From Malacoraja senta (Eukaryota), in contig CM075994.1 of assembly GCA_038087875.1 (NCBI GenBank), forward strand, positions 10,790,001 through 10,854,000: DNA of 64,000 nt. The letters are read 5' to 3'. Below the pieces are notes generated by a model. The model saw only the letters and a list, made by a program, of their open reading frames with translations, was not told the origin of the DNA and ran no database searches. Made by a program: the position numbers and the translations under genes. This document shows positions 26,601 through 48,300 of the stretch, one piece after another. Every line of letters starts with the position of its first letter. Position 1 is the stretch's first letter.

Positions 26601-27298
26601 AGGCTGATAAATCCCCAGGACCGGATGGTCTGCATCCCAGGGTACTTAAGGAAGTGGCTCTAGAAATAGTGGACGCATTGGTGATAATTTTCCAATGTTC
26701 TATAGATTCAGAATGTTCCTGTGGATTGGAGGGTAGCTAATGTTATCCCGCTTTTTAAGAAAGGCGGGAGAGAGAAAACGGAATTATAGGCCAGTTAGCC
26801 TGACATCGGTATTGGGGAAGATGCTGGAGTTAATTATAAAAGATGAAATAGCGGCACATTTGGAAAGCAGTAACAGGATCGGTCTGAGTCAGCATGGACT
26901 TACGATGGGGAAATCATGCTTGACTAATCCTCTGGATTTTTTGAGGATGTAACTAGGAAAATGGTCAAGGGAGAGCCAGTAGATGTAGTCTGCAGTACAT
27001 CTTTCAGAAAGCATTTGATAAGGTCCCACATAGGAGATTAGTGGGCAAAATTAGAGCACATGGTATTGGAGGTAGGGTACTGACATGGATTGAAAATTGG
27101 TTGGCAGACAGGAAACAAAGAGTAGGGATTAACGGGTCCCTTTCAGAATGGCAGACAGTGACTAGTGTGGTACCGCAAGGCTCGGTGCTGGGTGTAGCGG
27201 CCATTTGGCCTGTTTTGCATGTCATTGATGATTTGATTTGAAATCTTATATTTCGAACGATTAAAAAAAGAAAAGATGAAAATGAATAATAAATAAAG

Positions 27299-27330
<32 letters not shown>

Positions 27331-30300
27331 CATAAATACATACACACATACATACATATACATGTACATATATACATACATACATATACACATATAGATA
27401 ACATATATGTACATACATAAATTAAAAAATCAAAAGCCAATTTCAACATAATACACATTAGACTCGTTGGAAAAGGGATAGGAAGAAGCCTATGCTTGTC
27501 AAGTCCTACCCCCATTCTTCACCATTAACAAATGCAAAATTCAATAAAATAAACTAAACAGACAATTCAATTAAAACTACTCCAATCAAGCTATTAAGAA
27601 AAAAGAACAAAAAAAGAAAAGAACAAAAAGAACAAGCACCATTAACATCTGTGAGATTTACATTCTCCTTCCTCATTACTGTACTTTTCAAAGATATATC
27701 TTTTGTACATTTTTTTAAATTGCATTATATTCATACTTTGTTTAATTGTTTCATCAAGACCATTTCACAAAACCACCCCACAAATGGAAATACACATACT
27801 TTTTAAATTGGTCTGAGCATAATGCTGTTTCAAGTTTAGTTTCCCTCTAAAGTTATAACCCCCCTCTCTGTCTCTGAACAGTTTTTGTATGTTTACAGGT
27901 AGCAGTTTATTTTTTGCTTTATAAATTATTTGTGCAGTCTTAAATTCTACCAGATCCTTAATCTTTAAGGTGTGTAATTTTAAATACAGTATATTGGTGT
28001 GTTCATGATATCCTACATTGTTTACTATACGAATAGCTCTTTTTTGTAGTGTGCTTAGTGATTGTAAGGTGGTTTTGTAGGTGGTGCCCCATACTTCCAC
28101 ACAGTAATTTAAATACGGTAACACAAGTGAGCTGTACAGAATATACAGTGCTCTCTCATTCAAAACATGCCTTGCTTTCCCCATCACTCCAATACTCCGT
28201 GCTACTTTTGCTCTCACATGTTTTATATGGGGTTTCCAGCAGATTTTGTGATCAAGAATCACACCCAGAAATTTATTTTCATACACTCTTTCTATTTCAA
28301 CATTATTTATCATTAATTTTACTTGTGGATTTATTTTGCGTTTTCCAAACAGCATAAGTTTGGTTTTGTTTAAATTTAATGATAATTTATTCAAATCAAA
28401 CCATGTTTTCAGTTTACTCATTTCTGCTGTGACCACCTCCAAATTGTCCCCATCACAGAAAATATTAGTGTCATCTGCAAATAACACAAATTTCAAGAGG
28501 TTTGACACCCTACATATATCATTAATATACAAAATAAATAATTTGGGGCCCAAAACCGACCCCTGTGGGACTCCACAAGTTATTTCTAAGCATGTTGATT
28601 TGCAGTCCCCTATTTGCACAAACTGATGTCTTTTACTTATGTAGCTTCTCATCCACTCTAGTACAACCCCTCTGATTCCATACTTTTCCAATTTTTTGAT
28701 TAGCAAATGATGATCAATTGTATCGAATGCTTTTTTCAAATCTATAAATACACGCACTGCATATTTCTTGTTATCTATTGAACTGGTAATGTCTTCAATT
28801 AACTCCATTAATGCCATGGATGTCGATCTGTTTGACCTGAATCCATATTGACTATCAACTAGCAATTCGTGCTTCTCGATAAAGTTATCTAATCTACTTA
28901 CATACAGTTTTTCTAATATTTTTGAGAACTGAGAGAGTAACGACACCGGCCTGTAATTTGTAAATTGATTTCTGTCTCCAGCTTTGTATAGTGGGATGAC
29001 TTTGGCAGTTTTCATTTTACATGAAAATACACCAGTTTTGAAAGATAAATTGCAAATATAAGTTAAGGGTTTTACAATTACACCAATAACTACCTTGATT
29101 AAAGCCATATCAATGTCATTCCAGTCTGTAGACCTTTTATTCTTACAATTACTAACAATGTCAATAATCTCCTTTTCATCAGCTGCTTTCAAAAACATTG
29201 AGTTTGGGTTGCTGTCTAACAAATCCACAATCTTCCCCTCTCCTTCTTCTGACTGTGGATTATCGATTTCTTCTGCCAGTTTTGGTCCCACACTTACAAA
29301 AAATTTGTTAAACCCATTAACCACATCATTCATATCGCTTACAGTTGTATCATTGTCTTTAAAATACTGAGGGTAGTTTATATTCATTGATCCATTCCTG
29401 ATAATATTACAACACATTCCATATGCCCTTGATATTATTTTTATTATCGTTTAATATTTTATTATAATAATCTTTCTTACATATCCTCATAATACTAGTC
29501 AATTTATTTTTATATCTTTTGTATTTACTTTCTGCTTCAATAGTTCTAAATTTTATGAATTCTTTATACAAGATATTCTTTTTCTTGCATGCATTTTGTA
29601 GTCCTTTTGTCATCCATGGCCTATCTATATACTTTTGCTTCTTGTTGTGTTGTTTCAAAGGACAGTGTTCATCATATAATGATTTAAATATTATCAGGAA
29701 TGTTTCATACGCTTTGTTGGTATCAGTCTCTTTAAATACCTGTTTCCAATTTTGGGTCAGTAATACATTTCTAAATTTATTTATAGATTCTTCTGTTCTT
29801 ACTCTCCTGTATCTAATCTTATTAACATCCTTACACTTAACATAATCACAAACAAACATTACAAAAACCGGCAGATGGTCACTGATGTCATTTAGTAGTA
29901 ACCCACTCTTTATGATGGCATGTGCCTTTAAATTTTAGACTGCCCGTTATATTGTGGGTGGGATTTATGATGTGTTTTGGGGCGTGTTTGGAGCTTAGAT
30001 GCTTGCGCAGGTTTAGTTTTTAGATTAGTTTGGAGAGACGATGGGGAAGGTTAACCCTTCCATCATGCGGGATCATGCGGGGTCCATGCGAGATCTAAAG
30101 GAGATCATTCCAGTGTTACGGAGACACGAGGAGTTTTCTAATGTCTAAAGTAATAAGCTGGAGTTCGCTGAAGATTGTAGTAACGACTCGTAAGAAATTT
30201 GGATGTATGGATCGAACTAAGGAATTGTAAGGGTAAACAGACCCTAATGGGACTAATCTACAGGCCCCCAAACAGTAGCCTGGACATAGGGCGCAAGTTG

Positions 30301-33300
30301 AATCAGGAGTTAAAATTGGCATGTAGGTAAAAGTAATGCTGTGGTTGTTATGGGAGATTTCAACATGCAGGTAGACTGGGAAAATCAGTTGGTACTGGAC
30401 CCCAAGAAAGGGACTTTGTAGAGTGCCTTGGTGGTGGATTCTTTGAACAGCTTGTATTGGAGCCTACCAGGGAGAAGGCAATTCTGGATTTAGTGTTATG
30501 TAATGAACCAGATTTGATGAAGGACCTCGAGGTTAATGAGCCATTAGGAGGCAGTGACCATAACATGGTCAGGTTTAATCTACAATTGGAGAGGGAGAAG
30601 AGTAGATTGGAGGTGTCAGTGTTGCAGTTGAATAAAGGGGACTATCTGTGAAGAAGTTCTGAAGGTCTCTGTGAGTGAGTTCCCAAACATTTCGAAGACA
30701 CCCCCTTCAACCATGCTCATCCATTTAGCGGCTAGGGTGCTAATTACCTGAAAGATATGAAAATCTGCCGCTTCATTAAGTCGAAGGGAACCTCCGGCAG
30801 GGGGGTTAAATACCAGTCCCAGAGAGTGGGACAGAAGATTAAATCGAAGAAGACCTCCGTCACAGGAGCGAAACAAGTCCCAGAGATGAAGACAAAAGAT
30901 TGGCTAAGATTCTCGGAGAGGTTTTAGCCAGAAGAAAGTGGTTCCAGGAGGAACTGTAGCCGATAGATCTCGGCCGCAGAAGGGCCTTGAGGTCTATCGA
31001 CAGCATCGAGACTTATCTGAAGACGTATCACGGGATTTGTGTACAAATCGATTGTTACTCTTTGAATTTGAAATCACAGCTTTATTTTTAAACTGCAAAT
31101 GTATCAGAGAACTCAGAAGTGTTTTTCTAGTCTGCATGGAGATTCTAGCCAGACCGACCTTGGATTGTTTTGAGTCTCTTGATAAATGCATTCCATTTGA
31201 ATTAGCATCATCTCTTAGCACCTGGGGTTAGAGAGAAGTTCTCTACATTATTAGTATGTTATGGTTTTGAAAGAAACAAAACAAAGCCAGAGCTACTTGC
31301 AGAGACCTTTGTTCGATTAATTTAAAGACTTGGCAATCTGCCAAGACCTCTTTAAAATCATGGAATTAGAAGAAGAAGAAAGAGCTACGCCAGATGAACC
31401 ACGTGGTGGTAAAGAAAGACCCAGACAACTTAAAGAAACAGATAATACACTAACTGCCTGCTTGAGAGAAACCGAGAGAGAGAGAGAGAAACAAATTATG
31501 GTTACAGCTTACCAGAATAATTGATACACAGAAGAAACTAATGGACCAACAGAACGTGATCAAGGTGAAATCTAATATGAGCCAACTATTGAACCTCTGC
31601 TAGGAGGTTGGCAAGAAACAGAATGTCTGAAGAAGGGTTTCGCCCCGAAACGTTGCCTATCTCCTTCGCTCCATAGATGCTGCTGCACCCGCTGAGTTTC
31701 TCCAGCATTTTTGTGTACCAACAGAATGTACTGCTGTGTTCAGTGCTGTCTTGGGAAGAACGCAGAAGACACACCCAGTGGGATGAAGACAAGAAGAAGA
31801 TATTCAATGGTTTCATGAAAGTGGTTATCTGAAATTATGTCACAAGTTACGAGCTTAGTAGCTGGAAGTGCGAAGCAACAAGGTGCCAGAATGGAAGATG
31901 ACGCGACAGCAAGAAGAGATGGCGCGACAGATGACGCTACAGATTGAGAAGGTGAGAAGATGTAAGGAACAACTGGAAATAGACACAAAGATGGCGGTGG
32001 CCAAAGCAAAGGAGGAGCTACTGAAAAATGAAGGGTCAAGATGCAGCTCTAGATCGTCAAGGACGATGAGCTTTGGACCAAGAAGAAAAACTGCTCGAAG
32101 TGAATCAGCAGTTGGATCAATTCCACAATCGAGGTCCACCGGATTTCTAGGCTTTGATAACCTATTGGAACAGAATAAGATGGGTAACACTTCATCTCAG
32201 CAAATGGGTGCTAGATTGAAACAAATTACTTTTGGAGCGTCTGTGGATGCTCGAGACAAACCAATAGAGGACCACGCTTTTTCGAGGCCTGGTGCACAGG
32301 CTCGAGCAAGCCAGTTTGAATCACAAAGGCCTGTTTATCAACAGGTGGAGCCAAGACAGTTATCAAGATGGATTATTAGCACTGTTGAATAGGCAATCTG
32401 AATTCAACGAGATCATAGCCCGACAAAATACTTCTCTCATTTTACCACCAGTACAAATTCCTACGTATGGTGGAGATCCTTTGCAGTATGAAGCCTTCGT
32501 AAATGCATTAAAACAAATATTAGAAACAAAAGTTATGGATGAAAAAGAGCGCTTACGATTTCTGGTGAAGTACACAAGTGGAAGTGTGAAAGAGCTTGTG
32601 GAAAGTCGTCAGAAAGAGCAAGGTAACCATGGCTATAAAAAGGCCAGAAGATTACTTAAAGAAAGTTTTGGTGATGAACAGAGAATTGCTAACGCATACA
32701 TGGAGAAGGCCCATGCTTGGAAAGAAATCAAACTGGAAGATGGGGATGCATTGAGTGACTAGGCAATATTTCTGAGAAATTGTTGTAGCTCGATGAGAAA
32801 TCTCGGCCACATGAAAGAAATGTATTGAGGTTTAGTAATTGGCTGCTAAGACGTTTATTGAGGATAGTATTATATTCATATTTTAGTTTTAAGATCTTAT
32901 TGTAGTCAGACTGTAAGAGAGAGGATCTATACGTCTCTTCAAGCACTGGAAGCATCTTATCAATATCCCTAAGGCGACGATTAAGTTCTCTTTTTGTATA
33001 TGATTCAAATGAAATAATAACACAACCTCTCATCACAACCTTAAAAGCCTCCCATAAAGTGGAATCAGAGACTTCCCCATTATCATTTATGGTAAGAAAC
33101 TCATCTATACATGCAGTCATTTGGTCAATAAAAGAGTGATCATTAAGAAGAAGAGGGTTGAAGCGCCAGCTGTACTTTTGTTTGGACAGAATATCTTTAA
33201 ATTGAAGTGACACCGGACTATGGTCAGAAATCAAAATATTATGATAGGTGGAATTTGTTATACTGGACAGTAATTCAGACAAAATCAAAAAATAGTCAAT

Positions 33301-36300
33301 CCTAGTGTAAGATTTGTGGACATGAGAATAGAAAGAGAAATCTCTGTTAGTAGGATGCTGCAGTCGCCAAATGTCAACCATGTTCCTAGTCTTAGTTAAA
33401 TCATTTAAAGTTTGCACTGAGGCTATGGTAGGAGCCGGTTTTGTTGAGAGTCTGTCCAGGATTGGGTCTAAATAACAATTGAAGTCACCTCCAATAATGA
33501 CATTAGGGCTAGAGGCTGGTATCATATCAAAAATGTTACGAGACAAAGACGATCTGGCATTCCTCCAAAAAAACACAAAAGACAATAAAAAACACATAAA
33601 CACCACACATTGCGGTGCAAAACACCACACTCACACAACCCCCTAAACATATTCCCTACCCACCCACAGAGTGCCTCCCCAAATGAAGCACGGGTGTCCC
33701 TCTAAGCCTGGGACCGCTAAACGCACGCGAGGTGAGTACCTCCAAAAACAAAAACAAAAAAGTAGCTAGCTGAATAAAGCTACAGGAAGCTCCGCCGCCA
33801 GCCACGACTGAATAAAATAAAATAACATAAATTGACAGTCTCATACAAACTAATTGAATTTTCTGAACTGCAAAGTCACGTTGAAACATAATCAACCCTC
33901 TGAACACTCAGAGTGACGTCAAAGTTTTTAAGATATGTCTTTTAACTCAGTGTTCAGAAATGACGTTGCCTCACCTGGTGTAGTGAAAACCTTGACGCGG
34001 CCCTTGTGTTTGATGCGGAGCTTTGCTGGAAAGAGGAGACTATGCTCCACCTTGAGCTCCCGCAGCTCGCCCAACACATCGCTGAATTCCCGTCGTTGCC
34101 GCATCACATCTGGTGTGTAGTCCGGGAAGATAAGCACCTTATTGCCTTTATACACCAGCTCTCGCGCCCTCCGGAGTCGCAGTATAAGCTCCTTCTCCCG
34201 ATAAAAATGGACCCGTGCGATAATGGCGCGGGGCCTGGCTCCCTCCGGGGGTGGCGGTCGCAGGATCCGGTGTCCCGGTCGATAATCACCTTGGACTGGA
34301 AGTTGTCGTCTCCAAGAAGTTTCGGTATCAGAGCCTCGATGAATTCCGTCGGTTTACCCCCTTCCTCTAGCTCAGGTATGCCGATAATTTTAATATTATT
34401 GCGGCGTGACCGACCCTCGAGGTCCTCCACCTTGAGTTTGAGTGCGCTGTTCTCATCCTTCAGGCTGGAGAATGACTTTTCCAGGAAGCTAATACGGCTT
34501 TCTTGCTCCTGCACCTGCTCCTCGATAAACTCTACCTTCTCCAACAGTTCCTTTTGGGAGCTTTGTACTGCCTGAAGAGTCTGCTCCAACATCAAACCTG
34601 ACATTAATGTGTTTGAGTATCTTATCGGAGACCTTCTCCCAGGTCAGCAGCAAGTCATCGACGTCGTCACCACCTGTAACTTGACCCGGAGCTCGACTGG
34701 GGGAGCTGCCGCTAGCATTGCTAGCATTAACATTAGCTGAAGCTAGTCGGAGCGACTCAGTGTCTTTAGACTTCTTTTGAGGCATGACGTCCCGAAAAAT
34801 CAGTTAGCCGGACCTCTACTGTGCCAGGAAAGTTCCCGAGGCAGGTGAAAAAAAAATGTGAGACTATAAAAATACCAAATATAAAGACTGGCACGGAGGA
34901 GCCTCTGGAAGCACGTGTACTCCATACGCTGCTCACTAGCGCCCCCCCCCCATACTATGGCTATAAAAAGGCCAGAAGATTACTTAAAGAAAGTTTTGGT
35001 GATGAACAGAGAATTGCTAACGCACACATGGAGAAGGCCCATGCTTGGAAAGAAATCAAACCGGAAGATGGGGATGCATTGAGTGACTAGGCAATATTTC
35101 TGAGAAATTGTTGTAGCTCGATGAGAAATCTCGGCCACATGAAAGAAATGTATCATCTGAGTAATGCTAGAATCAGCTTTAACAAATTGCCCAGAAGACT
35201 GAGAGAAAAGTGGAGAGACGAAGCAGGCAAAATTAGAGATGAAAGGAATCAAGTAGCCAGGTTACCAGACATGGTGGACAGGGAAGAACGGAACATGTTA
35301 GAACCACACTGGACTATTGAAGATTACAAACCGATTGCAACTAACAAAGGTTCTACCTTCACCAAAATTGAAGAAATATCTGAACCTACGAGAAGTAGTT
35401 TTGCTATCACAACCAGACCTGTGGAAACGTCAGGTACACAAAAATGCTGGAAATGCTGTGGAAACGACAGATGGAATAAAAAGAAATGTGTCTACTAGCA
35501 AGCAAATAGTATTTTGTTTGTTATGTGATTAAGTTGGTCACACCATAATATGTAGCAATGTTACAATATTTTGAGATTTTAAAAATAAAGTCTGCAATTT
35601 ATCCCATCAGATAAAGCATAAAAAGAAGTTTAATTTGACACCTAATTCACTTTCATATCTTCAGTATTAAAGAAGTTATGGCCATTTTCATACTCGGAAA
35701 TTAGCATCTTGTTCCCTATTGCTTTTCCATTGACTTAACACAAAAGCTGTGATCGAGGACAGTTAAAAGCCCATAACTTTCGTAAAAATTAAGATAACTG
35801 AAAGAAATTTTCAGTTATTATAGATTGAAGCATTCTGAAACAAATATGAAACAATCTTACTTAGAAGACATGAAAGTAAAGCATATAATTAGTTAGTTAC
35901 CTAATTGTAGCTAATTACAAAATTCAATTACTAGATCTAAACATCTATCAATTTCTTAAGAATAGATTAACATTTTTAAATAGCCTAAGTGTCCAAATAA
36001 CATTCACACAATAATTCACAATATAACATAATTTTTAAATCTCATTTTCATGAATTTACAGGCCAAATGGAAGGAATTGAATGTTTAATACCTGTAAATT
36101 AATGGGCATTTAAATCATCTTGTGAGTGAGGATTTCTGGAACGCGATCTTTTGGAACGTTCATTTGCGGTGAATTTAACCCCGTATTGGCATGAAAAATA
36201 CTGCCGTTAGTTCGGGGAATAAAATTACCGTGTCGCATGAAAAAATGTGAATTAAAGGCTTCTTAAGAAGCACTTTTATACATTTAAAGAAACCACTTTC

Positions 36301-39300
36301 GTTTACCTGTCCCGTGTGTGAAATCCGTCCCCGTTATCGGCGTTGACGCTTCAGGAGCTGCTTTTAAAATTACTCTAGCGCTGACATTGACGATTTAATA
36401 AAAATAAAAAATACACAAAACGGCACTAGGAACGATTCTTCAGCCAAAGCTTGTACTCCAACAAAATATTAACCAGGACAAGGGAGGAGAAACCCGTGTT
36501 TTAACCCCGCCCCCCCTTAAAGGCGCCAAAATCGCGCACACGGCCAGTGGCAGAATTACAGCGCGACTGAAGGTAAGTTTTGTAACATACCTATAAGATG
36601 GTGTTGAAGATTCAAGATGAAAGAATATGAAGATAAGATGGATTTCTTGAAAGAGAAGGGTATCTGTTTTGGATGTTTGAAAAAAGGACATATGGAGAGA
36701 GACTGTAAAAGTCCTATAATTTGTTATGAGTGTAAACAATATCATCCAGTAGCACTTCACATTGAAGAAGTGCTACCAGAGCACTGGGAAGAAGAAGAAC
36801 TGGAACAAATGGATGATGAGCTACCAGAGCAAATAGAGGAAGATGAACCGGAGCAAACAGAACAGGGCGAGAAGCTAATTACTAGAAATGGTATCACCTC
36901 GCCTCGAGTAACTGCTCATATTGGGGTCGGGGTAGAAGCTTTTAATTTTTCTATCTTACCAGTGCAAGTAAAGGGCCTGTCCCACGGGCAGGCGATTCCA
37001 GGCGGTAAGCGCGGCGTGGCAGGAAGTGGGGACCGCGCGGGTGCCACCATACGGCCTGTCCCACGAGCATGCGGCTAGTGCAACCTAATCAGAAGCGGTT
37101 GCTGCGCGGAGGCCGAGTGTTTACCGTACGGCCTGTCCCACGAGCATGCGAATGCATGCGGCGAGCGCGGCGTCGGGTGATGACGTCATCGCGCAACGCA
37201 ATACGCTAGCCTACTCCGTCGAGACGGTGCTCGCGGCGTCAGGCCGTTGCCGCGCGGGATTTTTGGACAGTCAGTATTTCTGAGCCCCGCGCGGGGTCGG
37301 GACCAACTACATACGGCTCCGGCGATCTGCGTGGGACCGACCCCGCGGCCCCTGCGCGGTCCCCACTTCCTGCTATGCCGCGCTTACTGCCTGGAATCGC
37401 CAGCCCGTGGGACAGGCCCTTAAGGAACAGCAAGATCAATACAGTGTTGCAAACATATGCTTTTTTGGACCACGGAAGTTTGACTACCTTTTGCACAGAA
37501 AACCTGACGAGAAGATTGAATATCACAGAAGAGACTAAGATTCGATTACGTACCATGACTAAAGAAAAAGAGAGCATGAGTCATTGCATTACGAGTATGG
37601 AGATACACAGTTTGGATGAAGATAATTTCATACCAATATCTGAAGTGTTTACGCATGGAACTATGCCTGTTGGTCGTCAAAATATACCAAGACATGAAGA
37701 CTTGAAGTAATGGCCTTACCTGAAGGATGTCAATGTATCCAAAATGAATTCTAGTGTTGATCTACTGATCGGAATGAATGTTTTGAAGGCTTTGGAACCT
37801 ATACAGATTGTTAGGAGCCAAGGCGATGGACCATATGATATGAAAACCCGACTTGGATGGGTTATCTATGGCTCCTTGAAAAGGAACCACGAAAACGAAA
37901 ATCAGATGAACTGTCCTGCCATTGCTGTCAATCAGATATCTACTGATGAATTAGAAAAGCCGGTGATGAAGCCATACAATCATGACATCAATGAAAGTAC
38001 CAGCAAGGAATCTGAAGAGATGTCGAAAGAAGAGTTGAAGTTCATGGATGTTATGAACTACTCAGTGAAAACTGACGGACACTATTGTGTGGACTTACCT
38101 TTCAAACAAGAAAGTGTTAATCTGCCGAATAATCATCGTATGGCAGAGCAAGGTACCCAGAATTTGAGACACAAGTTTGGCGAGAAGAGTAAATTTCATG
38201 AAAGAATCTCTTTAAAGAATAACTTCAGCAAGGATGATTGCTTAAAATCCATGTTAGAAGCAATTCTACCAGTAGAACATCTGACTTCTCTTTGCAATAA
38301 GGGAGGATTCACACTTTCTAAGTGGAACAGCGCCAATTGTGAAAGCATTCCACTAGATGATAGAGCCAAAGAAACCAGAGAGTTGGATTTGGACAAATAC
38401 AATCTGCCAATGGAAAGAGCATTGGGAGTTACTCATGTTGTACAACTGAAATATGTTAACACAGAAGAAAATTCTGCGAATGAAGTTTCCAGAGAACTGA
38501 CGGCGAACCGTTTCTAAAGCGATAAGAAATGGATCGATAAACTAAAATCTCCCTGCAAGCCAGACAGAGAATGGCCAAAGCTTGAGCTGGGTTTTGAAAT
38601 CTCTGCTAATGATCCGGACATTAAATAAAACTTAACGGTGAACTTTATTGTTAAAGATCTTTTGAAGGATATTCATATTTCAACATTGCTGTTACAACAC
38701 ATCCATGAGTTGATTGGACATGGAGGAAGACGTTTCATGCTGTCAAAGCTTTGGACTATTATGCTTTGGACTATTAAGTTTTGGACTATATATTGGGTAT
38801 CATGCCTGATTTTAAGGGTTTGGTATGCACGGTACGACTCTGAATTAAAACCGGTGTTTTAATAAGATTAATAACCTAGTTGCGCTTGCTTCTAGAAGGC
38901 GAAAGTGAAGCCAGAAGAATCGATGAAGAATTCTGATTGCAGATATATAGGGCATGCTAATTTTTTCCTCGTTAGTATAGTGGTTAGTATCCCCGCCTGT
39001 CATGCAGTAGACCGGGGTTCAATTTCCCAACCAGGAGCCACGGGGTTTTATTCCCTGACCTTTTGATATATGTTAAGCCTTTAGGGCCACTTTTTTGATG
39101 TTTATTAGTAATTGCCTCGTTATATACTCGGAACAATTAGGGGCCGTTATGTAGTGGCCATTTAGCCTGTTTTGCATGTCATTAAGGATGGCATGTGCCT
39201 TTAAATTTTAGACTGCCCATTATATTGTGGGTGGGATTTATGATGTGTTTTGGGGCGTGTTTGGAGCTTAGATGCTTGTGCAGAAGTTTAGTTTTTAGAT

Positions 39301-42300
39301 TAGTTTGGAGAGACGATGGGGAAGGTTAACCCTTCCATCATGCGGGATCATGCGGGCCATGGAGGGTCCATGCGAGAACTAAAGGAGATCATTCCAGGAA
39401 GTGCGGACACTTTTGAAAAATATGAAAACGGATAAGCCTACAGGTCCTGACAGGATATTGCCTAGGACATTGAGGGAAGTTAGTGTAGAAATAGCAGGGG
39501 CTATGACAGAAATATTTCAAATGTCATTAGAAACGGGAATAGTGCCGGAGGATTTGCGTACTGCGCATGTTGTTCCGTTGTTTAAAAAGGGTTCTAAGAG
39601 TAAACCTAGCAATTATAGACCTGTTAGTTTGACGTCAGTGGTGGGCAAATTAATGGAAAGGATACTTAAAGATAATATATATAAGCATCTGGATAAGCAG
39701 GGTCTGATTAGGAACAGTCAACATGGATTTGTGCCTGGAAGGTCATGCTTGACTAATCTTCTTGAATTTTTCGAAGAGGTTACTAGGGAAATTGATGAGG
39801 GTAAAGCAGTGGATGTTGTCTATATGGACTTCAGTAAGGCCTTTGACAAGGTTCCTCATGGAAGGTTGGTTAAGAAGATTCAATTGTTGGGTATTAATGG
39901 TGGAGTAGCAAGATGGATTCAACAGTGGCTGAATGGGAGATGCCAGAGAGTAATGGTGGATGGCTGTTTGTCAGGTTGGAGGCCGGTGACTAGTGGGGTG
40001 CCTCAGGGGTCTGTGTTGGGTCCACTGTTGTTTGTCATGTACATCAATGATCTGGATGATGGTGTGGAAAATTGGATTAGTAAGTATGCAGATGATACTA
40101 AGATAGGTGGTGTTGTGGATAATAAAGTAGATTTTCAAAGTCTACAGAGAGATTTAGGACATTTGGAAGAGTGGGCTGAAAGATGGCACATGGAGTTTAA
40201 TGCTGACAAATGTGAGGTGCTACATCTCGGCAGGACAAATCAAAATAGGACGTACATGGTAAATGGTAGCGAATTGAGGAATGCAGTTGAACAGAGGGAT
40301 CTAGGAATAACTGTGCATAGTTCTCTGAAGGTGGAATCTCATGTACATAGGGTGGTAAAGAAAGCTTTTGGTGTGCTGACCTTTATAAATCAGAGCATTG
40401 AATATAGAAGTTGGGATGTAATGTTAAAATTGTACAAGGCATTGGTGAGGCCAATTCTGGAGTATGGAGTACAATTTTGGTCGCCTAATTATAGGAAGGA
40501 TGTCAACAAAATAGAGAGAGTACAGAGGAGATTTACTAGAATGTTGCCTGGGTTTCAGCAACTAAGTTACAGAGAAAGGTTGAACAAGTTAGGTCTTTAT
40601 TCTTTGGAGTGCAGAAGGTTACTTTGAGGTAACTTTGAGGGTATGAGAAGTGAATTGGCCAAGACAGACTGGCAATTGATTCTTAATGGGTTGACGGTAG
40701 ATATGCAATGGAAGGCATTTAAAGACTGCATGGATGAACTACAACAATTGTTCATCCCAGTTTGGCAAAAAAATAAATCAGGGAAGGTAGTGCATCCATG
40801 GATAACAAGGGAAATCAGGGATAGTATCAAAGCAAAAGATGAAGCGTACAAATTAGCCAGAAAAAGCAGCCTACCAGAGGACTGGGAGAAATTCAGAGTC
40901 CAGCAGAGGAGGATAAAGGGCTTAATTAGGAAAGGGAAAATAGATTATGAAAGAAAACTGGCAGGGAACACAAAAACTGACTGCAAAAGTTTTTATAGAT
41001 ATGTGAAGAGAAAAAGATTAGTTAAAACAAATGTAGGTCCCTTGCAGTCAGAAACAGGTGAATTGATCATGGGGAACAAGGACATGGCAGAACAATTGAA
41101 TAACTACTTTGGTTCTGTCTTCACTATGGAAGACATAAATAATCTGCCGGAAATAGCAGGGGACCGCGGGGTCAAATGAGATGGAGGAACTGAGTGAAAT
41201 CCAGGTTAGCCGGGAAGTGGTGTTAGGTAAATTGAATGGATTAAAGGCCGATAAATCCCCAGGGCCAGATAGGCTGCATCCCAGAGTACTTAAGGAAGTA
41301 GCCCCAGAAATAGTGGATGCATTAGTGATAATTTTTCAAAACTCTTTAGATTCTGGAGTAGTTCCTGAGGATTGGAGGGTAGCTAATGTAACCCCACTTT
41401 TTAAAAAGGGAGGGAGAGAGAAAACGGGGAATTACAGACCAGTTAGTCTAACGTCGGTAGTGGGGAAACTGGAGAATCAGTTATTAAAGATGGGATAGCA
41501 GCACATTTGGAATGTGGTGAAATCATTGGACAAAGTCAGCATGGATCCAGGCGGTGCTCGCGGCGTCAGGCCGTTGCCGCACGGGATTTTTGGACAGTCA
41601 GTATTTCTGAGCCCCGCGCGGGGTCGGGACCAACTACATACGGCTCCGGCGATCTGCGTGGGACCGACCCCGCGGCCCCTTGCGCGGTCCCCACTTCCTG
41701 CTACGCCGCACTTACTGCCTGGAATCGCCAGCCCGTGGGACAGGCCCTTAAGGAACAGCAAGATGAATACAGTGTTGCAAACATATGCTGTTTTGGACCA
41801 CGGAAGTTTGACTACCTTTTGCACAGAAAACCTGACGAGAAGATTGAATATCACAGAAGAGACTAAGATTCGATTACGTACCATGACTAAAGAAAAAGAG
41901 AGCATGAGTCATTGCATTACGAGTATGGAGATACACAGTTTGGATGAAGATAATTTCATACCTATATCTGAAGTGTTTACGCATGGAACTATGCCTGTTG
42001 GTCGTCAAAATATACCAAGACATGAAGACTTGAAGTAATGGCCTTACCTGAAGGATGTCAATGTATCCAAAATGAATTCTAGTGTTGATCTACTGATCGG
42101 AATGAATGTTTTGAAGGCTTTGGAACCTATACAGATTGTTAGGAGCCAAGGCGATGGACCATATGATATGAAAACCCGACTTGGATGGGTTATCTATGGC
42201 TCCTTGAAAAGGAACCACGAAAACGAAAATCAGATGAACTGTCCTGCCATTGCTGTCAATCAGATATCTACTGATGAATTAGAAAAGCCGGTGATGAAGC

Positions 42301-45300
42301 CATACAATCATGACATCAATGAAAGTACCAGCAAGGAATCTGAAGAGATGTCGAAAGAAGAGTTGAAGTTCATGGATGTTATGAACTACTCAGTGAAAAC
42401 TGACGGACACTATTGTGTGGACTTACCTTTCAAACAAGAAAGTGTTAATCTGCCGAATAATCATCGTATGGCAGAGCAAGGTACCCAGAATTGGAGACAC
42501 AAGTTTGGTGAGAAGAGTACATTTCATGAAAGAAGAATCTCTTAGAAGAATAACTTCTACAAGGATGATTGCTTAAAATCCATGTTAGAAGCAATTCTAC
42601 CAGTAGAACATCTGACTTCTCTTTGCAATAAGGGAGGATTCACACTTTCTAAGTGGAACAGCGCCAATTGTGAAAGCATTCCACTAGATGATAGAGCCAA
42701 AGAAACCAGAGAGTTGGATTTGGACAAATACAATCTGCCAATGGAAAGAGCATTGGGAGTTACTCATGTTGTACAACTGAAATATGTTAACACAGAAGAA
42801 AATTCTGCGAATGAAGTTTCCAGAGAACTGACGGCGAACCGTTTCTAAAGCGATAAGAAATGGATCGATAAACTAAAATCTCCCTGCAAGCCAGACAGAG
42901 AATGGCCAAAGCTTGAGCTGGGTTTTGAAATCTCTGCTAATGATCCGGACATTAAATAAAACTTAACGGTGAACTTTATTGTTAAAGATCTTTTGAAGGA
43001 TATTCATATTTCAACATTGCTGTTACAACACATCCATGAGTTGATTGGACATGGAGGAAGACGTTTCATGCTGTCAAAGCTTTGGACTATTATGCTTTGG
43101 ACTATTAAGTTTTGGACTATATATTGGGTATCATGCCTGATTTTAAGGGTTTGGTATGCACGGTACGACTCTGAATTAAAACCAGTGTTTTAATAAGATT
43201 AATAACCTAGTTGTGCTTGCTTCTAGAAGGCGAAAGTGAAGCCAGAAGAATCGATGAAGAATTCTGATTGCAGATATATAGGGCATGCTAATTTTTTCCT
43301 CGTTAGTATAGTGGTTAGTATCCCCGCCTGTCATGCAGTAGACCGGGGTTCAATTTCCCAACCAGGAGACACGGGGTTTTATTCCCTGACCTTTTGATAC
43401 ATGTTAAGCCTTTAGGGCCACTTTTTTGATGTTTATTAGTAATTGCCTCGTTATATACTCGGAACAATTAGGGGCCGTTATTTAGCCTGTTTTGCATGTC
43501 ATTAAGGATGGCATGTGCCTTTAAATTTTAGACTGCCCATTATATTGTGGGTGGGATTTATGATGTGTTTTGGGGCGTGTTTGGAGCTTAGATGCTTGCG
43601 CAGGTTTAGTTTTTAGATTAGTTTGGAGAGACGATGGGGAAGGTTAACCCTTCCATCATGCGGGATCATGCGGGCCATGGAGGGTCCATGCGAGAACTAA
43701 AGGAGATCATTCCAGGAAGTGCGGACACTTTTGAAAAATATGAAAACGGATAAGCCTACAGGTCCTGACAGGATATTGCCTAGGACATTGAGGGAAGTTA
43801 GTGTAGAAATAGCAGGGGCTATGACAGAAATATTTCAAATGTCATTAGAAACGGAAATAGTGCCGGAGGATTGGCGTACTGCGCATGTTGTTCCGTTGTT
43901 TAAAAAGGGTTCGAAGAGTAAACCTAGCAATTATAGACCTGTTAGTTTGACGTCAGTGGTGGGCAAATTAATGGAAAGGATACTTAAAGATAATATATAT
44001 AAGCATCTGGATAAGCAGGGTCTGATTAGGAACAGTCAACATGGATTTGTGCCTGGAAGGTCATGCTTGACTAATCTTCTTGAATTTTTTGAAGAGGTTA
44101 CTAGGGAAATTGATTTGGGTAAAGCAGTGGATGTTGTCTATATGGACTTCAGTAAGGCCTTTGACAAGGTTCCTCATGGAAGGTTGGTTAAGAAGATTCA
44201 ATTGTTGGGTATTAATGGTGGAGTAGCAAGATGGATTCAACAGTGGCTGAATGGGAGATGCCAGAGAGTAATGGTGGATGGCTGTTTGTCAGGTTGGAGG
44301 CCGGTGACTAGTGGGGTGCCTCAGGGGTCTGTGTTGGGTCCACTGTTGTTTGTCATGTACATCAATGATCTGGATGATGGTGTGGAAAATTGGATTAGTA
44401 AGTATGCAGATGATACTAAGATAGGTGGTGTTGTGGATAATAAAGTAGATTTTCAAAGTCTACAGAGAGATTTAGGACATTTGGAAGAGTGGGCTGAAAG
44501 ATGGCACATGGAGTTTAATGCTGACAAATGTGAGGTGCTACATCTCGGCAGGACAAATCAAAATAGGACGTACATGGTAAATGGTAGCGAATTGAGGAAT
44601 GCAGTTGAACAGAGGGATCTAGGAATAACTGTGCATAGTTCTCTGAAGGTGGAATCTCATGTACATAGGGTGGTAAAGAAAGCTTTTGGTGTGCTGACCT
44701 TTATAAATCAGAGCATTGAATATAGAAGTTGGGATGTAATGTTAAAATTGTACAAGGCATTGGTGAGGCCAATTCTGGAGTATGGAGTACAATTTTGGTC
44801 GCCTAATTATAGGAAGGATGTCAACAAAATAGAGAGAGTACAGAGGAGATTTACTAGAATGTTGCCTGGGTTTCAGCAACTAAGTTACAGAGAAAGGTTG
44901 AACAAGTTAGGTCTTTATTCTTTGGAGTGCAGAAGGTTACTTTGAGGTAACTTTGAGGGTATGAGAAGTGAATTGGCCAAGACAGACTGGCAATTGATTC
45001 TTAATGGGTTGACGGTAGATATGCAATGGAAGGCATTTAAAGACTGCATGGATGAACTACAACAATTGTTCATCCCAGTTTGGCAAAAAAATAAATCAGG
45101 GAAGGTAGTGCATCCATGGATAACAAGGGAAATCAGGGATAGTATCAAAGCAAAAGATGAAGCGTACAAATTAGCCAGAAAAAGCAGCCTACCAGAGGAC
45201 TGGGAGAAATTCAGAGTCCAGCAGAGGAGGATAAAGGGCTTAATTAGGAAAGGGAAAATAGATTATGAAAGAAAACTGGCAGGGAACACAAAAACTGACT

Positions 45301-48300
45301 GCAAAAGTTTTTATAGATATGTGAAGAGAAAAAGATTAGTTAAAACAAATGTAGGTCCCTTGCAGTCAGAAACAGGTGAATTGATCATGGGGAACAAGGA
45401 CATGGCAGAACAATTGAATAACTACTTTGGTTCTGTCTTCACTAAGGAAGACATAAATAATCTGCCGGAAATAGCAGGGGACCGCGGGTCAAATGAGATG
45501 GAGGAACTGAGTGAAATCCAGGTTAGCCGGGAAGTGGTGTTAGGTAAATTGAATGGATTAAAGGCCGATAAATCCCCAGGGCCAGATAGGCTGCATCCCA
45601 GAGTACTTAAGGAAGTAGCCCCAGAAATAGTGGATGCATCAGTGATAATTTTTCAAAACTCTTTAGATTCTGGAGTAGTTCCTGAGGATTGGAGGGTAGC
45701 TAATGTAACCCCACTTTTTAAAAAGGGAGATAGATAAAATGGGGAATAACAGACCAGTTAGTCTAACGTCGGTAGTGGGGAAACTGGAGAATCAGTTATT
45801 AAAGATGGGATAGCAGCACATTTGGAATGTGGTGAAATCATTGGACAAAGTCAGCATGGATTTATGAAAGGTAAATCATGTCTGACGAATCTTATAGAAT
45901 TTTTCTAGGATGTAACTAGTAGAGTGGATAAGGGAGAACCAGTGGATGTGTTATATCTGGACTTTCAGAAGGCTTTCGACAAGGTCCCACATAAGAGATT
46001 AGTATACAAACTTAAAGCACACGGTATTGGGGGTTCAGTATTGATGTGGATAGAGAACTGGCTGGCAGACAGGAAGCAAAGAGTAGGAGTAAACGGGTCC
46101 TTTTCACAATGGCAGGCAGTGACTAGTGGGGCACCGCAAGGCTCAGTGCTGAGACCCCAGCTATTTACGATATATATTAATGATTTGGACGAGGGAATTG
46201 AATGCAACATCTCCAAGTTTGCGGATGACACGAAGCTGGGGGGCTGTGTTAGCTGTGAGGATGCTCGAAGGCTGCAAGGTGACTTGGATAGGCTGGGTGA
46301 GTGGGCAAATGCATGGCAGATGCAGTATAATGTGGATAAATGTGAGGTTATCCACTTTGGTGGCAAAAACAGGAAAGTAGACTATTATCTGAATGGTGGC
46401 CGATTAGGAAAAGGGGAGATGCAACGAGACCTGGGTGTCATGGTACACCAGCCACTAAAAGTAGGCATGCAGGTGCAGCAGGCAGTGAAGAAGGCGAATG
46501 GTATGTTAGCATACATAGCAAAAGGATTTGAGTATAGGAGCAGGGAGGTTCTACTGCAGTTGTACAGGGTCTTGGTGAGACCACACCTGGAGTATTGCGT
46601 ACAGTTTTGGTCTCCTAATCTGAGGAAAGACATTCTTGCCATAGAGGGAGTACAGAGAAGGTCCGAATGGCCTACTCCTGCACCTATTTTCTTGTTTCTA
46701 TGTTTCTATGTTAAGAGGGGACTTGATAGAGGTCTCTAAAATTATGAGCGGGTTAGACAGAATGGACGTGGATAAGCTTTTCCCATTGAGAGTAGGGAAG
46801 ATTCAAACAAGGGGACATGACTTGAGAATTAAGGGCCAGAAGTTTAGGGGTAACATTAGGGGGAACTTCTTTATTCAGAGAGTGGTAGCTGTGTGGAATG
46901 AGCTTCCAGTGGAAGTGGTGGAGGCAGGTTCGATGTTATCCTTTAAAAATAGATTGGATGGGTATATGGACGGGAAAGGAATGGAGGGTTATGGTCTGAG
47001 TGCAGGTAGATGGGACTAGGGGGAAGTAAAAAAAAAGAAAAAAAAAAGTGTTCGGCACGGACTTGAAGGGCCGAGATGGCCTGTTTCCGTGCTGTTATGG
47101 TTATATGGTTATATATATGTTACGGAGACACGAGGAGTTTTCTAATGTCTAAAGTAATAAGCTGGAGTTCGATGAAGATTGTAGTAACGACTCGTAAGAA
47201 ATTTGGATGTATTTGGATAGATCTCACAAGGACCCCCCATGTCCCGCGTGGATAAGACGAAGGAGATGGTGATTGATTTCAGGAGGGCTGGCAAACACCA
47301 TCATACACCGCTGCACAATTGGCGGTGCAACTGTGGAGAGGGTCAGCAGCGTGCAGTTCCAGGGAGTTCACCTAGCGGACGACCTAACCTCAACGACCAA
47401 CACCACAGCAGTCATCAAAAGAGCACAGCAGTGGCTCCACCCCCTCCGGAGACTCAGAAAAGCAGGTCGCCCCACATTTCACCTTACCACCTTCTACAGG
47501 GGCACCATTGAAAGCATACTGACCTACGGCATCACTTCCTGGTTTGGGAGCTGCAAGGCTTACGAACAAAGACAGCTAAACAGGATAGTGAAGACAGCCA
47601 GTAGGATCATTGGTGCCCCCCTCCCTTTCCTTTTGGAGTTCTACCAGAAGCGCTGCATCCGCAGAGCCACCTCCATCATTAAGGACCCTTACCACCCCTC
47701 CCACTACATCTTCTCCATTCTGCCATCTGGGAAGAGGTACAGGCGTATCAGCTGCAGAACCAGCAGGATGCTAAACAGCTTCTTCCCACAAGCAATAAAA
47801 ATTGTCCCCTCCCCAAACACATACACCCGCACATCTAACCTCGCCCAACACCTTGACAGCTAGACACCTGTCAAGGTAAAGTCACTGAACAGCACCTTGA
47901 AATTGTTCCTATTTTAGGGATCGATTGTTCGGTTTGAACGTCTGTTTTAGTTCCATTTTAGGTCTATTTTAGAGATGATCATTTTTAACTTGTAAGTATT
48001 TATTTCTGTTTTTATTAATTGCACTGACAAAAACTGATGAGAATTTTTCGTTTCTTCTGTGTATGGTGAAATGACAATAAAGTGAATACTGATCTTACTG
48101 CTTTCTATCAGCAATAAAGCATTTATTCATCAAAAGACTGTGTTTTGAAGCCATATCTGTGAAGAAGTTCTGAAGGTCTCTGTGAGTGAGCTCGCATGCG
48201 TTTCAAAGACACCCCCTTCAACCATTCTCATCCATTTAGTGGCTAGAGTGCTAATTACCTGAAAGATATGAAAATCTGCTGCGACACTGGGACCGCAGCT

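Follow-up and report, generated by a model that had tools for sequence, protein, structure and literature searches.

A BEL/Pao retrotransposon of Malacoraja senta that probably primes from its own transcript and likely carries a tRNA-Asp as a passenger

Comparison of sequences suggests that the BEL/Pao retrotransposon described here probably starts reverse transcription from a primer cut off the front of its own RNA, and that the tRNA-Asp it carries would be a passenger. The element lies in a 64,000-nucleotide stretch of Malacoraja senta DNA, the whole of which we call the window. The first-pass annotation of this DNA had suggested that the primer may be self-encoded and had considered two roles for the tRNA, as the source of a Pol III trailer that primes or as cargo. 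The suggestion of a self-encoded primer is probably right, with an LTR motif as its source, as judged by the covariation and the chimeric junctions reported below. Of the two roles, cargo fits best, given tRNA-less relatives with the same type of site, a site that covaries with the LTR motif and a damaged tRNA.

Structure and classification of the element

The element spans 27193-48286 between CTGGG target duplications, and both of its LTRs have been broken up by later LINE insertions (Table 1); nested CR1-type LINE fragments dominate the window as a whole (1-64000). The LTR ends are TG...CA, the target duplication is short, and a polypurine tract is present (purine-rich near 39130-39147). The frame of the gag-pol remnant stops at 38934-38936, most of RT and integrase is gone, and a Pfam search of the window element's own frames gave no significant match. 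That the element belongs to BEL/Pao, as first annotated, was established through a family member, L164, whose gag-pol frame contains the Pao peptidase (PF05380, Peptidase_A17, 1e-42), DUF5641 (PF18701, 2e-22) and weaker matches to RVT_1 and DUF1759, and to which the window copy aligns along gag and pol at 76-88%. Matching 5-bp target duplications were found in 6 of 11 other full elements examined, the rest having no located end. The window element is an internally deleted BEL/Pao retrotransposon.

A 4.3-kb tandem duplication (37219-45861, 98.8% identity), genuine or an assembly artefact, covers the 3' part of the element and a CR1, so the two tRNAs in the window are not independent copies. Inside the pol remnant, a short insertion with terminal inverted repeats of ~70 nt (36971-37421) is probably a non-autonomous DNA transposon. 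The leader (30776-30960, and likewise in L060 and L105) contains tandem repeats after the primer site, their number differing between copies, and some of these repeats start with a near copy of the primer site.

Table 1. Features of the BEL/Pao element, in window coordinates
Feature	Position	Strand	Remarks
Left target-site duplication CTGGG, 5 bp	27188..27192	+	Element landed in an older CR1 LINE; CR1 continuity from 27190 to 48287
5' LTR, piece 1, begins TGT	27193..27232	+	Followed by LINE insertion
5' LTR, piece 2	29909..30208	+	Carries candidate start and primer motif
TTAGTTT, presumed initiator-like	30025..30031	+	Candidate transcription start
LTR motif complementary to post-LTR site	30046..30063	+	Predicted 3' end of self-primer
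5' LTR, U5 piece, ends CA	30643..30775	+	
Spacer TTAA, 4 nt	30776..30779	+	LTR end to primer site; copied in L181 junction
Putative primer-binding site, non-TGG, begins GT	30780..30795	+	Complementary to LTR motif
gag-pol remnants	32512..38936	+	Large internal deletions and later insertions; by alignment to L164
TATATA	38944..38949	+	Ancestral untranslated sequence, also in tRNA-less relatives
Captured tRNA-Asp(GTC), 72 nt, degenerate	38966..39037	+	ARAGORN; capture likely
Encoded CCA	39038..39040	+	Not encoded in the single host tRNA-Asp gene examined; points to capture from a mature tRNA
Trailer	39041..39064	+	Second, partial tRNA T-arm, then ancestral T run
Polypurine-tract region and 2-nt spacer	39130..39149	+	Before 3' LTR
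3' LTR, first copy	39150..39395	+	Cut by CR1 insertion at 39396
Tandem duplicate of 37219-41546	41546..45861	+	98.8% identity; second tRNA at 43296-43367
3' LTR of duplicate	43480..48286	+	LINE-split into 43480-43713, 47118-47212 and 48101-48286
Right target-site duplication CTGGG, 5 bp	48287..48291	+	

Pairing of the post-LTR site with the LTR

Past the end of the 5' LTR at 30775 the sequence reads TTAAGTCGAAGGGAACC; as had been noted earlier, no TGG stands there, and the same holds for the other family copies examined. A motif some 160-185 nt into the LTR ends in CCCTTC(G/T)AC, and its complement, GT(C/A)GAAGGG, lies four bases past the LTR. Both sites could be read in 29 of 33 elements, and by alignment the variable pair is G:C in 14, T:A in 11 and mismatched in 4, so that compensatory pairing is kept in 25 of the 29 readable copies. 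Because the copies are related, the Fisher p of 6e-6 overstates this covariation, which within the family may come down to one paired change inherited by many copies. The mismatched four include the window copy, whose motif has two departures from perfect pairing common to all three LTR copies of the element; two loci carry one and the same mismatch in both LTRs.

The duplex formed by the LTR motif beats shuffled sequences in 9 of 10 elements. In five copies the motif ends 36-37 nt after TTAGTTT, which resembles the initiator consensus, and five natural copies folded from this candidate start gave predicted pairing probabilities of 0.92, 0.85, 0.59, 0.32 and 0.0. One poly(A) RNA run contained 560 reads on the LTR and leader, mostly 90-95% alike or less, and these marked no start or end sites. 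The 3-9 nt spacer between LTR and site in the clade of this element would need trimming beyond the usual 2 nt, which counts against self-priming. As in elements of the Tf1 type, the primer site has its complement in the LTR of the same element and shows compensatory change, and the primer is probably element-encoded.

Related families and LTR introns

Relatives were sought through DUF5641, which gave 150 matches; 60 of these were taken at 10 kb, many had no findable 5' LTR, and 10 entered a complement test. The test comprised 12 elements of different families or subfamilies, 9 of them without the tRNA, those nine having been obtained through the integrase-end domain. The best LTR complement (8-12 nt) begins at a GT at or near the LTR end in 11 of the 12, with LTR ends set by hand. 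The fraction of shuffles doing as well was <=0.03 in 10 of the 12 (null means near 6 nt), a comparison that pitted the better of two observed LTRs against a single shuffled one and in which the choice of splice patterns came after the junctions were known. Primer sites vary among families and track each family's own LTR, high off-diagonal values occurring mainly between close relatives.

The LTRs of L094, L097, L110, L142 and L156 contain introns of ~105-275 nt, and once these are taken out the complement to the post-LTR site is whole, while L100, L143 and L152 have the motif and no intron. In four elements, taking out the LTR intron lengthens the complement from 6, 6, 9 and 6 nt to 10, 10, 10 and 11 nt. 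The clade of the window element has no LTR intron and a spacer of 3-9 nt. The rule of a self-complementary site is not universal, since one BEL/Pao family in this genome (L175-L179) keeps a TGG-type site, placed after an LTR of ~285 nt and an AT, that is, 2 nt past the LTR. Every LTR copy read in that family precedes the site, which suggests tandem arrays.

Chimeric loci

In both LTRs of L151, exon 1 and the spliced motif are followed by 49 nt of reverse-complemented LTR end and then by the base directly after the motif, the intron being absent. Such chimeric LTRs number five at three loci of an intron-bearing sister subfamily (L151, L202-L206), and so the chimera itself has been copied further. 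We infer that reverse transcriptase reached the cut 5' end of its template and jumped onto the primer with short cDNA attached; a plain DNA inversion does not account for these loci, because the intron is removed and the sequence resumes at the base after the motif. Within the tRNA family, LTR-type sequence in L181 ends at the AC of the motif, after which come spacer and U5 in reverse complement. An exact probe for this junction found one locus and its reversed control none; by itself, L181 could have arisen by inversion between 9-nt inverted repeats. The chimeric loci fall at the junction expected from an RNase H cut.

In one contig from run X17 (L032:1302-1622) the LTR motif continues, at the primer site, on the opposite strand, with the geometry of L181; the contig may come from the same locus or species and was not counted as independent. 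Two other candidates were set aside. L035, with a 5' LTR that begins at the initiator-like site, had looked like a copy beginning at the transcript start, and it is uninformative since an insertion separates it from its U3, 2.5 kb upstream. The inverted LTR piece of L037 is not at the motif.

Distribution, state and origin of the tRNA-Asp

The tRNA-Asp(GTC) described in the first-pass annotation is called by ARAGORN at 38966 and, in the duplicate, at 43296, and we also find the CCA behind it (ACA in the duplicate) and the trailer with its T run. The TATATA upstream was correctly located, but as a piece of a captured Pol III cassette it was ruled out, for the tRNA-less relatives L086, L155 and L162 have it too. 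Searching with the tRNA plus flanking sequence yielded 834 candidates, of which 40 were scored and 30 fetched. A check proposed earlier, whether the tRNA recurs at the same position in independent insertions, gave a positive answer: it stands at the same place in all 30 fetched loci, ~110 nt upstream of the 3' LTR of an element several kb long, ARAGORN calls it in 23 of them, and the elements examined for target duplications have their own in the proportion given above. As the loci were chosen by a tRNA query, 30 of 30 indicates many copies and not a fraction. The best 30 of 367 candidates for tRNA plus trailer all have element flanks, so the tRNA is not a free SINE among the best matches; a tRNA-derived SINE inserted in the window copy was rejected on this ground. 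Near-identical tRNA-bearing copies ~19 kb apart on contig C5841 (L114-L116, L120, L125) are likely a segmental tandem array.

The element tRNAs are degenerate. Position 61 is T in 47 of 47 copies, differing from the host gene; the second G of the D-loop is A or T in 25, with D-loop changes common to many copies; and the T-loop C of the trailer is T in 38, while CCA is kept in 40. Element tRNAs score 42-45 bits with the Rfam model, the host tRNA-Asp 70, and divergence of the tRNA (0.079) is near that of its flanks (0.074-0.088) in copies picked by similarity to the tRNA region. The one host tRNA-Asp gene found by Rfam search has no encoded CCA, its flanks are unlike those of the element, and at three positions it differs from all three element copies compared, which makes capture from a mature tRNA by reverse transcriptase the simplest and a likely reading of the origin. 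A functional host tRNA-Asp gene was ruled out by the loss of C61 in the T-stem, the changes in the D-loop GG, the encoded CCA and the element flanks. A damaged tRNA with a CCA that the host gene lacks is likely captured cargo.

Relatives without the tRNA were obtained by an integrase-end domain search and have the same 3' region, with an uninterrupted T run and often the same TATATA. The earlier remark that no marks of insertion are visible is accurate for the window copy taken by itself, but against these relatives the insertion is clear, the tRNA and trailer interrupting their T run. A tree of 61 rows (22 without tRNA, 3 with a 3'-truncated form ending in the T-arm and 36 with the full form), which mixed in non-homologous upstream sequence in deleted copies, placed the tRNA-bearing rows in one clade (100/99) nested among tRNA-less rows. 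The order was unchanged in a second tree of 34 of the 61 rows, trimmed to mostly homologous sequence, in which the full forms are a clade (100/98) and the three short forms fall outside. Three pol-bearing tRNA copies have a truncated tRNA, without acceptor 3' strand or CCA, and the trailer, a second partial T-arm, resembles the end of the short form. The trees suggest the order none, short, full as likely but not firm, there being only three short forms. The tRNA-Asp is thus likely a captured passenger, in a lineage nested among tRNA-less BEL/Pao relatives.

Alternative sources of the primer

The proposal that the Pol III trailer of the element tRNA serves as the minus-strand primer, or as a helper primer, deserves hardly any credence on the present evidence. 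The resemblance of trailer and post-LTR sequence on which it was built is real: the duplex does better than shuffles (p<=0.05) in each of the 6 C-type elements, 6 of the 10 examined, and outscores the LTR duplex in 3 of the 10 (one with an over-long trailer); the UU end of the trailer would also fall 2 nt from the LTR, the usual offset, and CCA is widely kept. But this duplex is gapped and reaches significance in none of the 4 A-type elements (p 0.06-0.46), and the covariation of trailer and site that had been suggested as a check is lacking, the trailer being identical in C-type and A-type elements, unlike the primer site. The site covaries with the LTR motif instead. A site of this type, matching the LTR of the element itself, is also present in relatives without any tRNA; the pol-bearing tRNA copies lack acceptor 3' strand and CCA; the trailer is a duplicated T-arm; and in L181 the primer end lies at the LTR motif. 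Priming by the tRNA 3' end with its CCA was rejected as well, since in 10 elements its duplexes reach no more than -5.9 to -12.5 kcal/mol. That some host tRNA, or a fragment of one, primes at an unusual site while the LTR pairing is purely regulatory is very improbable too. Host tRNA priming is what ICTV states for the family (PMC8742986), one BEL/Pao family of the same genome has the TGG site 2 nt after its LTR, and our comparison covered only 7 host tRNA types; the best complement of the site to these 7 is 5 nt, though, the site varies by family after each family's own LTR, and the chimeras join the LTR motif to a copied LTR end.

Two further readings accept the pairing. The motif that pairs could be the copy in the 3' LTR, the RNA circularising or a 3'-end piece acting as primer; the start site is a candidate, so the motif could lie in U3, and in the L097 family it stands directly before AATAAA. 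We regard this as distinctly improbable, for in the tRNA family the motif lies ~150 nt before AATAAA, the intron families need splicing to form the motif and yet keep the intron in their LTRs, as expected if the 5' copy is spliced and the 3' copy is not, and in the L151-type chimeras the sequence takes up again with the base that follows the motif, the outcome expected of a template that had been cut close to its 5' end. Alternatively, self-priming would proceed as proposed and the tRNA would aid the deleted family as a Pol III promoter or insulator, a packaging signal or a cleavage site for RNase P/Z. The family of full-length forms is indeed large (834 first-look candidates, of which 40 were scored), the short form is probably older than the full one with its CCA, and at position 69 a wobble pair of the host gene has become a Watson-Crick pair in the three copies compared. 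The change at position 61 in all 47 copies, the widespread D-loop changes, the altered trailer T-loop and a tRNA divergence near that of the flanks, albeit in copies picked by similarity, speak against a function, and we consider one unlikely.

Proposed mechanism

Under self-priming from the cut-off front piece, Pol II would begin transcription ~37 nt short of the motif end, at the initiator-like site, and the motif, whose complementarity to the GT-starting site 4 nt past the LTR is observed, is predicted to fold onto that site. By the example of Tf1 and from the chimeric loci, RNase H would then cut just after the motif AC, and reverse transcriptase would extend from the cut across spacer and U5. 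Both new LTRs would inherit the motif from the parent 3' LTR, so that the LTR intron survives in the splice-primed sister families and copies with a mismatched motif can arise. The spacer would be trimmed at integration. As to the tRNA, the phylogeny places a single entry of a 3'-truncated tRNA-Asp into the 3' untranslated T run; the full tRNA with CCA and the leftover T-arm would have come later, probably by template switching of reverse transcriptase on a mature tRNA, and the deleted tRNA family would then have been copied in trans.

A broader reading, to which we incline as reasonably probable, is that a large share of vertebrate BEL/Pao elements do without a host tRNA and use their own transcript. 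The cut in it would follow an invariant AC, the pairing partner of a GT that stands at the LTR end or close to it. In one clade the primer would be ready-made and the spacer 3-9 nt long, while in others the primer would be built by splicing out an intron within the LTR, so that host splicing gates replication. The chimeras would record the primer end and cut site, and the tRNA-Asp lineage would have picked up a tRNA twice without needing it as primer.

Relation to known systems

According to excerpts of the respective papers, Tf1 RNA primes with its initial 11 bases after an RNase H cut (PMC7175516), Tf1-like self-priming has been proposed for Tj1 (PMC4600332), and the plant lineages Tcn1 and TAR are predicted self-primers (PMC6317226). 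In the same excerpts, Tf1/Tf2 of S. pombe, Tj1, the Tf1/sushi group (Metaviridae), Tcn1 and TAR likewise have no tRNA site and a site complementary to their own LTR-derived RNA (PMC7175516, PMC4600332, PMC6317226). The present elements differ from Tf1, as far as it is described there, in being BEL/Pao and in a pairing segment predicted to end ~37 nt into the RNA instead of comprising its first 11 nt, and from the Tf1 group in the 3-9 nt spacer of the window clade and in the completion of the motif by splicing in sister families. Their domains are BEL/Pao and not those of a Ty3/gypsy chromovirus pol, which sets them apart from the Tf1/sushi group.

TG...CA LTRs, 5-bp duplications, a polypurine tract and, in the pol-bearing member, Pao peptidase, DUF1759, RT and DUF5641 are shared with Belpaoviridae (Semotivirus). 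The ICTV profile gives that family an 18-nt site for host tRNA-Arg or tRNA-Gly and calls its replication poorly understood (PMC8742986). No such 18-nt site is seen here, judging by the missing TGG, as tRNA-Arg and tRNA-Gly were not among the host tRNAs read. What we describe is likely, from the sequences compared, self-priming of the Tf1 kind, a known mechanism with a spliced form in sister lineages, here in a family to which ICTV ascribes priming by host tRNA. Helenus has a tRNA-like sequence inside its LTR and, with Ajax and Cassandra (TRIMp3), resembles the window family as a non-autonomous LTR element with small-RNA-derived sequence unlikely to be a working tRNA; in TRIMp3, by the available portion of that paper, the small-RNA piece is in the LTR and priming is by tRNA, whereas here the tRNA is internal, before the polypurine tract of a 4.4-5.5 kb BEL/Pao derivative (PMC10886601). 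Membership in TRIMp3 (Helenus) was rejected, since the tRNA is not in the LTR and the element is not under ~1.3 kb. Cer7 of C. elegans, a BEL-like element, reportedly encodes its own tRNA-like primer near the 3' end. The 3' end of the Cer7 RNA reportedly matches the primer site, whereas here the tRNA 3' end with its CCA does not.

The portions available of a BEL/Pao survey (PMC3118150) contain no occurrence of primer, tRNA or PBS. In those of the Sinbad paper (PMC554778) the terms tRNA, PBS and priming do not occur, and those of PMC3601003, PMC8220671 and PMC8672886 contain nothing on this subject. Our literature search, with thin coverage of subscription papers and without Repbase and the full ICTV report, returned no BEL/Pao self-priming and no internal tRNA in BEL/Pao.

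Implications

The element-borne tRNA-Asp copies pass tRNA finders in many cases (ARAGORN, in the proportion given above) and would inflate tRNA gene counts in this genome. The chimeric loci predict exact primer ends, which makes the proposal testable in small-RNA or 5'-end data. If it is true, self-priming arose again in a third LTR superfamily, and annotation tools that require a tRNA site would miss such elements. BEL/Pao elements would evade tRNA-fragment silencing aimed at primer sites, and a primer built by splicing would couple reverse transcription to splicing.
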